NCBI GenBank assembly: GCA_964016885.1
Contig: OZ024744.1
Span: forward strand, 81,344,001 to 81,408,000
From: Eledone cirrhosa
Taxonomy: Eukaryota
DNA: 64,000 nucleotides
Direction: 5' to 3'
Position 1 is the first letter of the stretch; each line of letters opens with the position of its first letter. The notes under the pieces are model-generated. The model saw only the letters and a program-made list of their open reading frames with translations. It was not told where the DNA came from and did not search any database. Below are positions 41,650 through 60,840 of this stretch, piece after piece. The position numbers were made by a program, and so were the translations under genes.

Positions 41650-41912
41650 TATCATCATCATCGTTTAATGTCCATCTTCCACGCTAGCATGGGTTAGACG
41701 GGAGTGGTGCAACCTGAGGCAAGGTGGGTCGGGTGACTGTGTCTCGCTCATATAGAACTATCTGGCAGGTTTTCTATGGCTGGATGCCCTTCCTAACACC
41801 AACCACATTTACAGTGTGGGACTGGGGACTTTTTACCGTGTTACCTACCAGGCCACATTACAGCGTGGACTGTGTGTTTTTTTTGTAGTGACACCTACAC
41901 GATCTCGATCTC
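41650..41912 (-). mobile_element. RTE 3'UTR / family C fragment
   Basis: Reverse-complement similarity to 43720-44090. Confidence 0.85.
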
Positions 41913-42047
41913 ATCATCTCATATATATTTACATATATACACACACATATATATATATACATATATACACATATATATATATGTATACATATATACACAT
42001 ATATATATATATATACATATATACACATATATATATATATACATATA

Positions 42048-44093
42048 TCTGGAACGGTGGGACACACCATGGTCACCCGGATAGTAAATGGGGTTGTTCC
42101 GAAGGACTGGCATAGCAGCATCATCATTAACTGTTACAAGGGAAAAGGAGATGCCCTAGCTAGGAGTAACTATAGAGGCATTAAATTAATCGACCAGGTC
42201 ATGAAGGTCACGGACAAAGTAATAGCGCAACTAATCAGAGAAAGAATTGATCTAGATGAAATGCAGTTCGCGTTTGTGTCAGGCAAAAGTACCACAGACG
42301 CTCTTTTCATTGTACGACAACTACAGGAGAAGTACCTAGCTAAAAGTAAACCCCTATACTTAGTTTTTGTCGACTTGGAGAAAGCCTTCGACAGAGTCAC
42401 CCGTTCCATTATCTGGTGGGCTCTTAGAAAACTAGGAGTCGACGAATGGCTTGTGAAGCTATACAAGCCATGTATAAAGAAACAGTCAGCAAGGTTAGAA
42501 TTAACAACGAATATAGTGAAGAGTTTAGCGTAAAAGTTGGTGTTCATCAAGGCTCTGTTCTTAGCCCCCTACTATTTATTATTGCCCTTCAGGCTATAAC
42601 AGTGGAGTTCAAGACCGGCTGCCTATGGGAACTCCTATACGCAGATGATCTAACGCTCATAGCTAAATCAATGGCCGAGCTAGAGAAGAAATTCCAAACA
42701 TGGAAGCATAGCTTAGAATCAAAAGGCCTTAAAATTAACCTGTCTAAGACTAAAGTTCTAGTTTGTAGGAAAGAAAATAAGGCGCCGGTCCATTCCGGGA
42801 AATGGCCATGCTCAGTGTGTAGGAAAGGCATAGGTAGAAACTCCATTTTATGTCCCAAATGCAAAGTATGGGTGCATAAAAGATGTAGTGGGATCACAGG
42901 TAAGCTAAGAACATATTTACATGTGGCGGGTGCCCTGGTGCAATAAGTAGCAGCAAGTGCCCACAGAATACTAGCTCTTTCAATTGCGTAGAGGGTTCTA
43001 TAGAAATAGTGGACAGCTTCCGTTACCTGGGTGACAAAATCAGCAGTGGGGGAGGGTGCTCTGAAAGTACAGTAGCTAGAGTCAGAACTGGATGGAAAAA
43101 GTTCAGACAGCTTATACCACTATTAGCCGCTAAAGGGTTCTCCCTAAAAATGAAAGGCAGGCTGTATGATGCCTGCATACGAACATCAATGTTACATGGC
43201 AGTGAGACTTGGGCATTGTGTGCAGCAGATATACGCAGACTAGAGAGGAACAAAGCTTGCATGCTCCGCTGGATGTGTAATAGTAATATACGTGAACGGC
43301 AAAGCATAAACGAACTAAGGGAAAAATTAGAAATAAGAGGGATCAGATGTTGTTTACTCGAGAGAAGACTACGTTGGTATGATCACGTGATGCGCATGAA
43401 AGACGACAGCTGTATAAAAAAGTGCAGGGCAATGAAGATAGACGGTAGCCACGGAGTAGGCAGACCCAGAAAAACCTGGGACGACCTGATAAATTCCGAC
43501 CTCACACACTTACACCCCTCCAAGACAATGTCACTGGACCGAGATCTTTGGCTTTACTCAGTAATAGAGAAGACCCGCCTTGCCTAAATACAAAGTAAAC
43601 CTACTACAGTCAGTAGGCATCTCTAACAAAATACGCCCCCATCACACCACCACCACCCCCATCCACACCGCCCCTTTCAATGTAAAGTTACGTTGGTGCC
43701 ACAACATCCAGGCCGAAACAAATGAGATCGTGTAGGTGTCACGACAAAAAAACACACAGTCCACGCTGTAATGTGGCCGTGTAGGCAACACGGTAAAAAC
43801 CTCCCAGTCCCACACTGTAAATGTGGTTGGTGTTAGGAAGGGCATCCAGCTGTAGAAAACCCGCCAGACAGTCCACGCTGTAATGTGGCCGTGTAGGCAA
43901 CACGGTAAAAACCTCCCAGTCCCATACTGTAAATGTTGTTGGTGATAGGAAGGGCATCCAACTGTAGAAAACCCGCCAGACAGTCCTATGCGAGCAAGAC
44001 AACCACTCTTGCCTCAAGTGGGAAAACTCCCGTCCAAACCCATGCAAGAGTGGAACATGGACGTTAAACGATGATGATGATGATGATGATGAT
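42048..44093 (+). mobile_element. RTE-clade LINE, 5'-truncated, relatively young, frameshifted RT with long 3' UTR
   Basis: ORFs 42057-42533 ([24 protein letters not shown]), 42446-42946 (GVHQGSVLSP, YADD, Cys finger) and 43009-43587 (FRYLG, GRPRKTW). The 3' UTR has a duplicated aggaagggcatcc module and ends in (GAT)n. Confidence 0.96.
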
Positions 44094-45687: not shown

Positions 45688-46000
45688 CATATATATATAT
45701 ACATATATATATATATACATATATATACATATACATATATATACATATACATATATATACATATATATATACATATATATATATATACATATATACATAT
45801 ATATATATACATATATATATACATATATATATACATATATATATACATATATATATACATATATACATATATATATACATATATATATACATATATATAT
45901 ACATATATATATATACATATATATACATATATATATATACATATATATATATACATATATATATATATACATACATATATATATACATATATATATAATA
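44748..46000. repeat. (TA)n/TACA microsatellite
   Basis: Directly visible. Confidence 0.98.
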
Positions 46001-46280
46001 TATATATAATTTTAATTTTGGTAAAGGTATATTATTATAATGTATTATGTTTATTGCATTGTGTTATATATAATTCCTGCTCTATATAACCAAATTTGTT
46101 TAGATTTAGGTTAGTTGCTTTGGACTATATTTGTAATATGGTTCTTAATGTTATCTACATCCTTAGTTATTCTTATTATTATATATTTTTATTTTCATAT
46201 ATTTTTGTAAGACTTTAGTGTATGTACACTCCATATTCTTCAGGGTTTCCGGCTTGTATCTGCCGATATTACTTCTTGTT

Positions 46281-46336
46281 GTTTTGATTGCCCTGATGAG
46301 TCCTTAATAGGACGAAACATTGTCGGCTAATAAAAA
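46281..46336 (+). ncRNA. Canonical minimal type I hammerhead ribozyme (Penelope-LTR type)
   Basis: GCC-CUGAUGA-GUCCU-UAAU-AGGAC-GAAA-CAUUG-UC^GGC. All core residues canonical; predicted cleavage after 46324; aataaa immediately downstream. Confidence 0.85.
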
Positions 46337-46376
46337 CTTTTGATGTATTAAAGGATTCTTTGTTTTACTCTCTTAA

Positions 46377-47225
<849 letters not shown>

Positions 47226-48718
47226 GAATATAGACATAGAATATTCGAAAATATTCTGTATGTTTATAATAAACATTTTGAAGACCTAATCGCTATAGAA
47301 TAGAATACGTCACGTATTACAATTAGATTCTCGATAAAAGCAAGGGAAGTAATCCACGCGTTTCATTCTCGTTAGAAATCATCAGGACTACATATCCAGT
47401 GCTTTTATCGAGAATGACACAGCTAGAGACTTATAGAATACTTAGCTGTGTACAGGAACTGGTTTGAAAGAGCGGTTGCCGGTCCGGCAGAAATTAGAAA
47501 TTGGAATAAATGCTCTGAAATAGCGATATATATGTGAATATAGACATAGAATATTCGAAAATATTCTGTATCTTTATAATAAACATTTTGAAGACCTAAT
47601 CGCTATAGAATAGAATACGTCACGTATTACAATTAGATTCTCGATAAAAGCAAGGGAAGTAATCCACGCGTTTCATTCTCGTTAGAAATCATCAGGACTA
47701 CATATCCAGTGCTTTTATCGAGAATGACACAGCTAGAGACTTATAGAATACTTAGCTGTGTACAGGAACTGGTTTGAAAGAGCGGTTGCCGGTCCGGCAG
47801 AAATTAGAAATTGGAATAAATGCTCTGAAATAGCGATATATATGTGAATATAGACATAGAATATTCGAAAATATTCTGTATGTTTATAATAAACATTTTG
47901 AAGACCTAATCGCTATAGAATAGAATACGTCACGTATTACAATTAGATTCTCGATAAAAGCAAGGGAAGTAATCCACGCGTTTCATTCTCGTTAGAAATC
48001 ATCAGGACTACATATCCAGTGCTTTTATCGAGAATGACACAGCTAGAGACTTATAGAATACTTAGCTGTGTACAGGAACTGGTTTGAAAGAGCGGTTGCC
48101 GGTCCGGCAGAAATTAGAAATTGGAATAAATGCTCTGAAATAGCGATATATATGTGAATATAGACATAGAATATTCGAAAATATTCTGTATGTTTATAAT
48201 AAACATTTTGAAGACCTAATCGCTATAGAATAGAATACGTCACGTATTACAATTAGATTCTCGATAAAAGCAAGGGAAGTAATCCACGCGTTTCATTCTC
48301 GTTAGAAATCATCAGGACTACATATCCAGTGCTTTTATCGAGAATGACACAGCTAGAGACTTATAGAATACTTAGCTGTGTACAGGAACTGGTTTGAAAG
48401 AGCGGTTGCCGGTCCGGCAGAAATTAGAAATTGGAATAAATGCTCTGAAATAGCGATATATATGTGAATATAGACATAGAATATTCGAAAATATTCTGTA
48501 TGTTTATAATAAACATTTTGAAGACCTAATCGCTATAGAATAGAATACGTCACGTATTACAATTAGATTCTCGATAAAAGCAAGGGAAGTAATCCACGCG
48601 TTTCATTCTCGTTAGAAATCATCAGGACTACATATCCAGTGCTTTTATCGAGAATGACACAGCTAGAGACTTATAGAATACTTAGCTGTGTACAGGAACT
48701 GGTTTGAAAGAGCGGTTG
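47226..48718 (-). repeat. 310-bp tandem array, left arm (~4.8 units), hammerhead on minus strand
   Basis: Units start at 47226, 47536, 47846, 48156 and 48466. Hammerhead motifs at 47327-47415, 47637-47725, 47947-48035, 48257-48345 and 48567-48655. Confidence 0.97.
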
Positions 48719-50004
48719 TTCTATGTCTATATTCACATATATATCGCTATTTCAGAGCATTTATTCCAATTTCTAATTTCTGCCGGACCGGCAACCGCTC
48801 TTTCAAACCAGTTCCTGTACACAGCTAAGTATTCTATAAGTCTCTAGCTGTGTCATTCACGATAAAAGCACTGGATATGTAGTCCTGATGATTTCTAACG
48901 AGAATGAAACGCGTGGATTACTTCCCTTGCTTTTATCGAGAATCTAATTGTAATACGTGACGTATTCTATTCTATAGCGATTAGGTCTTCAAAATGTTTA
49001 TTATAAACATACAGAATATTTTCGAATATTCTATGTCTATATTCACATATATATCGCTATTTCAGAGCATTTATTCCAATTTCTAATTTCTGCCGGACCG
49101 GCAACCGCTCTTTCAAACCAGTTCCTGTACACAGCTAAGTATTCTATAAGTCTCTAGCTGTGTCATTCTCGATAAAAGCACTGGATATGTAATCCTGATG
49201 ATTTCTAACGAGAATGAAACGCGTGGATTACTTCCCTTGCTTTTATCGAGAATCTAATTGTAATACGTGACGTATTCTATTCTATAGCGATTAGGTCTTC
49301 AAAATGTTTATTATAAACATACAGAATATTTTCGAATATTCTATGTCTATATTCACATATATATCGCTATTTCAGAGCATTTATTCCAATTTCTAATTTC
49401 TGCCGGACCGGCAACCGCTCTTTCAAACCAGTTCCTGTACACAGCTAAGTATTCTATAAGTCTCTAGCTGTGTCATTCTCGATAAAAACACTGGATATGT
49501 AGTCCTGATGATTTCTAACGAGAATGAAACGCGTGGATTACTTCCCTTGCTTTTATCGAGAATCTAATTGTAATACGTGACGTATTCTATTCTATAGCGA
49601 TTAGGTCTTCAAAATGTTTATTATAAACATACAGAATATTTTCGAATATTCTATGTCTATATTCACATATATATCGCTATTTCAGAGCATTTATTCCAAT
49701 TTCTAATTTCTGCCGGACCGGCAACCGCTCTTTCAAACCAGTTCCTGTACACAGCTTAGTATTCTATAAGTCTCTAGCTGTGTCATTCTCGATAAAAGCA
49801 CTGGATATGTAGTCCTGATGATTTCTAACGAGAATGAAACGCGTGGATTACTTCCCTTGCTTTTATCGAGAATCTAATTGTAATACGTGACGTATTCTAT
49901 TCTATAGCGATTAGGTCTTCAAAATGTTTATTATAAACATACAGAATATTTTCGAATATTCTATGTCTATATTCACATATATATCGCTATTTCAGAGCAT
50001 TTAT

Positions 50005-50010
<6 letters not shown>
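48719..50010 (+). repeat. 310-bp tandem array, inverted right arm (~4.2 units), hammerhead on plus strand
   Basis: Reverse complement of the left arm. Hammerhead motifs at 48855-48943, 49165-49253, 49475-49563 and 49785-49873. Confidence 0.97.
49785..49873 (+). ncRNA. Type I hammerhead motif with extended stem I (one of 9 copies)
   Basis: AUUCUCGAUAAAAGCA-cuggauau-GUAGUC-CUGAUGA-U-UUCU-AACG-AGAA-U-GAAA-CGCG-U-G-GAUUAC-uucccu-UGCUUUUAUCGAGAAU. Atypical G17 and U10.1-U11.1. Confidence 0.75.
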
Positions 50011-50051
<41 letters not shown>

Positions 50052-50414
50052 TATACATATACATATATATATACATATATATATACATATACATATACAT
50101 ATATATATATACATATACATATATATATATACATATACATATATATATATACATATACATATACATACATATATATACATACATATACATATATATATAT
50201 ACATATACATATATATACATATATATATATACATATACATATATATACATACATATACATATATATATATACATATACATATATATACATATATATATAT
50301 ACATATACATATACATATACATATATATATACATATACATATATATATATATACATATATACATATACATATACATATATATACATATATATATATACAT
50401 ATATATATATATAC

Positions 50415-50461
<47 letters not shown>

Positions 50462-50620
50462 CATATACATACATATACATATATATATATACATATACAT
50501 ACATATACATATATATATACATATATATATATACATACATATATATACATATATATATATATATATACATATATATACATATATATATACATATATATAC
50601 ATATATATACATATATATAC

Positions 50621-50663
<43 letters not shown>

Positions 50664-50674
50664 TATACATATAT

Positions 50675-50729
<55 letters not shown>

Positions 50730-50730
50730 C

Positions 50731-50776
<46 letters not shown>

Positions 50777-50785
50777 ATATATATA
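50011..50785. repeat. (TA)n/TACA microsatellite
   Basis: Directly visible. Confidence 0.98.
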
Positions 50786-50923
50786 GGGTTCTATAGAAAT
50801 AGTGGACAGCTTCCGTTACCTGGGCGATAAAATCAGCAGTGGGGGAGGGTGCTCTGAAAGTACAGTAGCTAGAGTCAGAACTGGTTGGAAAAAGTTCAGA
50901 GAGCTTATACCACTATTAGCTGC
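50786..50923 (+). mobile_element. RTE LINE fragment cut by the assembly gap
   Basis: Nearly identical to 42992-43130 ([19 protein letters not shown]). Confidence 0.92.

Positions 50924-51123: not shown

Positions 51124-60840
<9,717 letters not shown>

Follow-up and report, generated by a model that had tools for sequence, protein, structure and literature searches.

Inverted two-armed arrays of a 310-bp hammerhead repeat in Eledone cirrhosa: a probable non-autonomous Penelope-like element of the retrozyme kind

The stretch considered here, referred to as the window, comprises 64,000 nucleotides of the genome of Eledone cirrhosa (assembly GCA_964016885.1, contig OZ024744.1, forward-strand positions 81,344,001 to 81,408,000). 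At 47226-50010 it contains an array of 310-bp units that carry a hammerhead motif. The locus is one insertion of a young, abundant and non-coding mobile element. Judged by its sequence, the element appears to work like a non-autonomous Penelope-like element (PLE). It is likely to be of the retrozyme kind that has no long terminal repeats (non-LTR) and to be inserted by reverse transcription of a circular RNA from two ends; its assignment to the retrozymes is made on sequence-level features, in a class that is defined experimentally by cleavage and circular RNA. The arrays consist of two inverted arms with fixed and unlike outer ends inside (TA)n tracts, and both arms share one haplotype. The same layout is present in PLEs of this genome that encode a reverse transcriptase (RT).

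The array spans 2,785 bases, which correspond to 9.0 units, in agreement with the approximately nine near-identical units of a preliminary description made from the sequence. The units show 5 differences from the locus majority in approximately 2,750 aligned bases, the GC content is 34.5% and 13 CpG are found versus 9 expected. The absence of a credible open reading frame (ORF) in the array also held, as the frames within it do not exceed 61 codons and the longer ones cross the TA microsatellite. An ORF with RT and GIY-YIG, which would characterize an autonomous PLE, was not found in the window element. On the other hand, the array is not the single tandem that had been described. Tandem Repeats Finder reports two parts, 47216-48718 with 4.8 units and 48719-50010 with 4.2 units, and these arms are mutual reverse complements, with the hammerhead strand pointing outward on each. 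This inverted layout, the most informative feature of the locus, had been missed, as had the fact that the window copy is a rare variant with G at hammerhead position 17 (G17). The features of the locus are the following.

46378-47225, no strand: (TA)n/(TACA)n microsatellite, left target flank.
47226-48718, minus: left arm, 4.8 tandem units, hammerhead sense on this strand.
48589-48631, minus: hammerhead motif of the left arm, with G17, recurring at -310, -620, -930 and -1240.
48718-48719, no strand: inversion junction of the arms, blunt and without overlap; its place varies between loci.
48719-50010, plus: right arm, 4.2 tandem units, hammerhead sense on this strand.
48879-48921, plus: type I hammerhead motif of the right arm, recurring at +310, +620 and +930.
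49165-49253, plus: 16-bp helix extending stem I (49165-49180 with 49238-49253).
49975-50009, plus: 35-nt tail at the A end, absent from the B end; a terminal extension of PLE type.
50010-50785, no strand: (TA)n microsatellite, right target flank.

On the left arm, the outer end is the short "B" end, at unit position 15 where it merges into TA microhomology, and the inner end lies at unit position 73. The outer end of the right arm is the long "A" end, at unit position 50/51.

The proposal of a dispersed, very young retrozyme-like family is borne out by the copy number. The core pattern has 17,136 matches in the genome and none in the reversed control, and exact junction patterns give at least 1,149 A ends and at least 1,188 B ends, a ratio of about 1:1. 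Two samples of loci were compared, namely 36 chosen by similarity and 98 taken from the A-end junctions of one contig, out of the first 100 in the list (of the other two, one had already been sampled and one lay inside another fetch). Two inverted arms are present in 89 of the 98 A-end loci: 76 have both A and B ends and 13 have their far end beyond the fetch. The remaining loci are five single arms, three that run off the fetch and one missed by the fetch, and A-A pairs are absent. Since these loci were sampled by their A end, the informative count is that of the opposite end, which is B in 76 of 76. The similarity-chosen loci comprise 29 with A and B ends and seven that are single-armed or incomplete.

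The outer ends are fixed at unit position 50/51 for A and 15-25 for B. The spacing between them, which forms the tail, is 26-35 nt depending on how TA microhomology is assigned. The B site has TA microhomology to the target and the A site has at most one shared base. By a strict count the B flanks are TA-rich in 65 of 76 loci, the A flanks having been selected for TA, and target-site duplications are unreadable inside (TA)n. The inner ends are spread round the unit (Kolmogorov-Smirnov p = 0.049) and in 59 of 89 loci the overlap where the two arms join is 0-5 nt. Most arms exceed one unit (87% of 165) and some reach 18 units. Termination at the cleavage site was considered and rejected, as only 4 of 178 inner ends lie near the cut, with no pile-up, and the arms repeatedly read through the site. 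In the five complete single-arm loci, which were chosen by their A end, the inner truncation point varies from locus to locus; the inner flanks of nine single-arm loci showed no fusion of an arm to a PLE 3' end. Inverted arms in 89 of 98 loci, a one-sided tail with one A and one B end, and a TA target are the marks of a PLE-type insertion, and the suggested Penelope link gains from this architecture. An older sister family, with a period of about 315 bp and 2,718 candidates, has the same arm polarity and a tail-like end, as read from one locus (L128 2441-2880) and the strand order in the match table. In L184 (1857-2600), a flank of about 240 bp beside the B end recurs inverted some 500 bp away.

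The loci are uniform inside and different from each other, with 38 haplotypes in 91 loci. Among the 53 loci with at least two units on each arm, the arms share their haplotype in 52 and an arm-specific fixed difference occurs in one; two random loci share a haplotype 8% of the time. An A>G variant at unit position 162 is found in 46 of 763 units, is confined to 6 of 91 loci and is fixed in 5 of those 6, while 10,000 permutations never placed it in fewer than 26 loci. It is present on 4 haplotype backgrounds. Genome-wide it has 852 matches, and the first 100 of the 852 form runs, mostly on both strands; runs on both strands also account for 45 of 51 G17 units and 31 of 37 U17 units. Locus-wide substitutions number 33 in 89 loci, a count that sets aside 7 of the 98 loci with fewer than 300 unit positions covered, the old-subfamily loci L097 and L177, deletions, events in fewer than three units and the window locus itself. 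The changes within loci fall at 106 single-unit versus 14 multi-unit sites, the latter in nine loci. Uniform loci, shared arm haplotypes and locus-wide variants point to arrays born long from one monomer, as a circular template would give, and this is the simplest reading of the sequences. The one-unit, 310-nt circular template put forward earlier has indirect genomic support as regards the single monomer, and the circle itself is what we infer.

Two further observations concern the template. In L088, A at 162 is confined to the four outermost A-arm units, and the later A-arm units and the entire B arm have G; this one case is a possible hint of an A-then-B order of synthesis, and a template switch would fit it as well. 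Cyclic 340-nt contigs of low depth (365, 12 and 14), 2-3 letters from the window unit, occur one each in three runs under other organism codes. As they could be carry-over, they do not count as a sign of spread between species. Tandem DNA, just like a circle, should also give cyclic contigs.

The hammerhead parts sit where they had been placed: a 6-bp stem I extended by the 16-bp helix, the core, a 4-bp stem II with an AACG loop and a palindromic 6-nt stem III. The fold of the preliminary description thus stands, whereas two positions depart from canonical hammerhead rules. Position 17 is G in nine of nine window units on both arms (48915, 49225, 49535 and 49845 in the right arm), and the stem II closure (10.1:11.1) is U.U, as in the right-arm motif, or A-U, and not G-C. 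With G at the cleavage position, the window copy is probably inactive. Across the genome, 16,924 units have A at position 17, 51 have G and 37 have C or T; the cleavable GUA triplet is the family norm and the window locus a rare variant.

A relaxed type I descriptor matches 899 times in the fetched loci and not once after reversal of these sequences. It also lists several other families, with different stems and the same non-G-C closure of stem II; pairing in families found in this way is required by the descriptor and is not independent evidence. The sister family in L128 aligns to the window family over approximately 280 nt, flanks included, and both sides are changed in 4 of the 16 pairs of the long helix and in 2 of the 4 pairs of stem II. 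Overall, 94% of the cells of the helices pair versus 43-53% in slid controls, in a set of five sequences from two families that is in effect one comparison. These compensatory changes agree with the covariation anticipated among relatives. Within the family, the core differs between subfamilies at position 7, which is free, and at 10.1.

The lowest-energy cofold of two units is predicted to be a double hammerhead with intermolecular stems I and III, as had been suggested for a palindromic stem III. The predicted lowest-energy fold of the monomer as a circle keeps stem I and loses the active core. Circular folding has z = -5.1 for the sense and -6.5 for the antisense strand. As the antisense value is the more extreme, folding energy alone cannot pick the strand. 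The Rfam Hammerhead_1 model, named earlier as a check, matches neither the window copy (E up to 1) nor an A17 copy (E up to 10), and the other Rfam (miRNA) matches on the unit are noise from the TA repeat and hairpins. The descriptor with its reversed control, the sister covariation and A17 in 16,924 units nevertheless support one type I hammerhead per unit, with the Rfam result and the window G17 as caveats.

The link to PLEs can be followed in the same genome, which has 10,594 GIY-YIG candidates. ORFs with RT and GIY-YIG (Pfam) measure 938, 1,021 and 636 aa as scanned, and the long frames carry a CxxC linker. This linker is assigned to the Neptune and Nematis clades (Craig 2021, PMC8557442), and by the linker only the PLEs of this genome are called Neptune-type. 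Two loci, L147 (2509-5322, minus) and L149 (1275-4562), have long open PLE frames with RT and GIY-YIG, of 938 and 1,096 codons respectively, and are candidates for recently active elements. In the PLEs of L152, L159 and L160 the arms are inverted, (TA)n lies on the flanks and one side only has a tail, of roughly 40-65 nt. Downstream of the ORF, at a distance of about 200 nt to the end, several PLE loci have hammerhead-like motifs in which the closure is U.U, stem III is palindromic and, in most cases, the triplet is GUA. Neptune-type 3' ends with hammerhead-like motifs of a U3-A8 core variant, which was already known (Cervera 2014, PMC4209133), are found in L128, L130, L132, L134, L138, L141, L143, L163 and L164. 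Rfam found none of these motifs in the nine PLE loci scanned, L128 included. The match of the layout to the published PLE tail and to two-site, two-strand initiation ties the array family to the PLE mechanism.

Unit matches in L128, L152 and L159 were considered as partner ends and rejected, as they are other small hammerhead families inserted nearby. A second small TA-inserted hammerhead family occurs in L159 (5130-5330), L152 (180-310), L155, L195, L076, L125 and L048; its stem II and core are nearly identical, but its 4-bp stem III is looped. At least four further hammerhead variants lie in flanking DNA (L184 3200-3250, L073, L040, L065, L114, L186 and L188). This suggests that the genome has many families of non-autonomous PLEs that target TA. 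For one of its PLE proteins the closest named homologue is from Octopus bimaculoides, with 75% identity, an indirect sign in line with an octopod host. The PLE proteins P0012, P0032, P0040 and P0056 are filed under genomes of bacterial symbionts of bivalves and are probably host DNA within those assemblies.

The mechanism considered likely has four steps. First, the arrays would be transcribed, a dimeric type I hammerhead would cut the transcripts into 310-nt monomers and a host ligase would close these into circles. Then, as the shared layout suggests, a Neptune-type PLE protein (RT plus GIY-YIG) would cut both strands of a (TA)n tract. Subsequently, each target 3' end would prime RT on the same RNA molecule, at one of two fixed internal start sites 26-35 nt apart, B with TA microhomology and A with at most one shared base; the pattern of this step is observed in the genome and its chemistry is what we infer. 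Finally, each RT would circle a variable number of times and the two cDNAs would be end-joined head to head at a random point. The outcome would be two inverted tandem arms of one haplotype, full length at birth, and the window locus would be one such event from a template with G at the cleavage position.

Several points weigh against this mechanism. Among the 38 GIY-YIG loci compared, of 10,594 candidates, no PLE has ends matching this family, and the common ground is the hammerhead subtype only. As Rfam misses the motif and the stem II closure is non-canonical, hammerhead activity is a prediction. In PAc (Poseidon from Anolis) the hammerhead is dispensable for insertion and unprocessed RNA is the main substrate (Frangieh 2024, PMC11167929), and eight of nine Xenopus retrozyme dimers were uncleaved in vitro (Li, Clavereau and Pollet 2026, bioRxiv 10.64898/2026.07.22.740005). 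The nine loci with multi-unit sites have variants in 2-4 units and not in all, the arm-specific case L124 among them, so that multimeric templates, template switches or later crossover are needed. Linked changes in non-adjacent units or in both arms, observed in L079, L102, L078, L192, L098 and L115, do not fit a pure monomer circle. One observation in favor of the mechanism is that younger arrays are longer: the young subfamilies have 0.05% internal divergence and a mean of 9.3 units, and the older 312-bp subfamily 0.31% and a mean of 4.0 units. This length contrast is confounded by the different sampling of the two sets.

Some of these points favor a template that is a long linear, uncleaved transcript of an existing array, copied by both RTs of a PLE-mobilised insertion with circles taking no or a rare part. 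PAc uses unprocessed RNA and internal start sites, the hammerhead is non-canonical, and the mosaic variants of the nine loci are matched across arms in two (L098 and L192). A uniform source array would also yield matching arms and could account for any single locus. However, uncleaved RNAs of at least 18 units would be required. The length of the arrays would have to be renewed and new variants fixed locus-wide (the 33 substitutions in 89 loci, and 162 on its 4 backgrounds), so that a one-monomer bottleneck is needed even with a linear template. This alternative is the strongest of the four and is nonetheless judged unlikely.

Growth in place is clearly less probable. A short two-armed PLE-type insertion could later be extended by unequal crossover or slippage and homogenised where it stands, as in the local amplification model of the Li preprint and in general satellite theory, and the few repeated multi-unit variants (L079, L102 and L078, for example) would agree with it. 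On the other hand, the youngest arrays are the longest in the differently sampled sets given above, the changes within loci are mostly single-unit, and the locus-wide spectrum differs from the sporadic one, whereas homogenisation in place should fix a sample of the sporadic spectrum.

The inverted arms, fixed outer ends and TA target could also belong to a foldback or miniature inverted-repeat DNA transposon with tandem-repeat arms that targets (TA)n and keeps the hammerhead as a relic. The random inner junction, different at every locus, largely refutes it; the ends are asymmetric in all 76 loci with both seen, the five complete single arms are truncated at variable inner points, RT-encoding PLEs of this genome have the same layout and the RNA helices covary. 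The probability of this alternative is accordingly very low. Least probable is an ordinary satellite, or an assembly that folded a tandem array back on itself: near-identical repeats beside microsatellites and an N gap are hard to assemble, but more than 1,100 dispersed loci have the same two fixed ends, the arms differ in length, end and phase, and the older sister family has the same polarity.

The spectrum of the locus-wide substitutions raises a further question on the template. Sense-strand A>G changes are 17 versus 3 T>C (p = 3e-4), and 12 versus 3 when counted by background (p = 0.007). The 106 sporadic changes, with 11 A>G and 16 T>C, have no bias, and the A>G share differs between the two classes (17 of 33 versus 11 of 106, Fisher p = 2e-6; by site 7 of 21, p = 0.012). 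The older subfamily has 8 versus 1 sites, polarised by majority only in copies chosen by similarity to the window. Helices of 6 bp or more contain or adjoin 8 of the 9 A>G sites versus 23 of 82 for the remaining As, and a 5' G precedes none of these sites; UAG, the preferred context of ADAR, is the triplet at positions 162 and 196. Selection for stems that tolerate G.U pairs would favor C>T too, and locus-wide C>T changes are limited to 2 events. The bias is possibly due to ADAR editing of the template.

Evidence against editing comes from the count by distinct site, in which A>G is 7 versus 3 T>C (p = 0.11), and from position 17, where U is locus-wide in 3 loci versus G in 6. Selection for G.U tolerance and shared descent can mimic part of the bias, and repeated sites may be inherited. 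If the circle model holds, editing has a little less than an even chance. A more far-reaching proposal is that each locus is the DNA record of one circular RNA: a pair of Neptune PLE proteins would prime both (TA)n ends on the same 310-nt circle, roll A then B and write adenosine-to-inosine edits by ADAR into the germline as locus-wide A>G, the window G17 would be an edit at the cleavage site, and editing would drive the heritable evolution of the element. We hold this proposal as tentative, with the chances somewhat against it.

Other features lie close to the array in the window. At 46000-46377, between two TA tracts, a separate AT-rich element end is followed by AATAAA after its hammerhead, and it is probably the 3' end of another PLE. 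Its canonical type I hammerhead at 46287-46331 scores 31.7 bits with Rfam Hammerhead_1, under the 34-bit gathering score, and is the one Rfam hammerhead match near the array. Fragments of a LINE reverse transcriptase, presumably RTE-like by their motifs, occur at 41892-43587 and 50787-50923, and the piece at 50787 duplicates part of the 42904 frame. At 51476-60737 lies a (CATA/TA)n microsatellite of 9 kb, the strand skew of which is extreme.

The entry of retrozyme arrays has so far been assumed to occur by rolling reverse transcription of circles by an RT that was not named, or by local amplification after insertion. More than 1,000 very young insertions now tie such arrays to the two-site, two-strand mechanism of PLEs, and their haplotypes point to one RNA per insertion. 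The long-assumed copying step becomes testable. In vitro studies of PLE enzymes gain a substrate of 310 nt that occurs in nature, and the question why the start sites of the two ends are always unlike can be approached. The family also offers a possible case of RNA editing written back into the germline. Such inverted arrays, long and able to form hairpins, occupy approximately 5 Mb of the genome (17,000 x 310 bp) and could give rise to double-stranded RNA.

Searches of the open-licence PMC and bioRxiv literature turned up neither this family, nor two-armed retrozyme arrays, nor edited retrozyme templates. By term counts, inverted arrays or tails for retrozymes are absent from the main texts of Cervera and de la Pena 2020 (PMC7229834) and of Li 2026. 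The layout and the one-template haplotype pattern would be new within the non-LTR retrozymes.

The metazoan non-LTR retrozymes (Cervera and de la Pena 2020) are non-coding, low-GC tandem units of 150-450 bp, with GC below 50%, one type I hammerhead per unit and a short palindromic stem III suited to dimer cleavage, and they have thousands of copies in genomes with PLEs. The present family shares these features at sequence level, with 310 bp, 34.5% GC, no credible ORF and PLEs in the genome. The class is further marked by a lack of LTR, PBS and PPT, and by target-site duplications that exceed 4 bp where they occur. For the retrozymes, circle-templated tandem cDNA and PLE mobilisation were offered as hypotheses, and the word "inverted" is absent from the main text; here, two inverted arms with a PLE tail, set in (TA)n, are found at most loci. 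A further difference from the non-LTR retrozymes is that stem II is closed by U.U or A-U. The Xenopus retrozymes derived from PLE pseudo-LTRs (Li 2026) likewise present animal retrozymes as non-autonomous PLE derivatives, on the basis of co-occurrence and homology to these pseudo-LTRs, with local amplification invoked for the arrays. "Tail" and "octopus" are absent from the main text of that preprint, whose species table includes four invertebrates.

The endonuclease-containing (EN+) PLEs of Neptune/Naiad type (Craig 2021) are closer in their insertions, with partial tandems, an inverted 5'-truncated copy and a tail of 30-40 bp at one end; a 31-bp tail on one inverted repeat was described by Arkhipova 2013 (PMC3846280). 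These insertions agree with the present family in (TA)n targeting and a hammerhead about 150-220 nt from the end, and non-autonomous Chlamys elements in multicopy head-to-tail insertions are mentioned by Craig 2021. Unlike EN+ PLEs, the present family lacks an RT/GIY-YIG ORF, each of its arms is a concatemer with many units of a 310-nt monomer, and no sequence match to a specific autonomous family was found among the 38 of 10,594 candidates compared. In L1 twin priming the second target end also primes cDNA and an inverted part results, with the second start at the stop of the first cDNA. This was rejected for the present arrays, as arm A has its inner end close to the B site in just 11 of 89 loci (p = 0.28). 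A biochemical parallel is the purified PAc protein (Frangieh 2024), which cuts and extends both strands of AT-rich DNA from two adjacent internal start sites on the RNA, the spacing of which equals the tail. In PAc both strands use the same start sites, whereas here 76 of 76 loci have one end of each type, and TA microhomology to the target is present at the B site.

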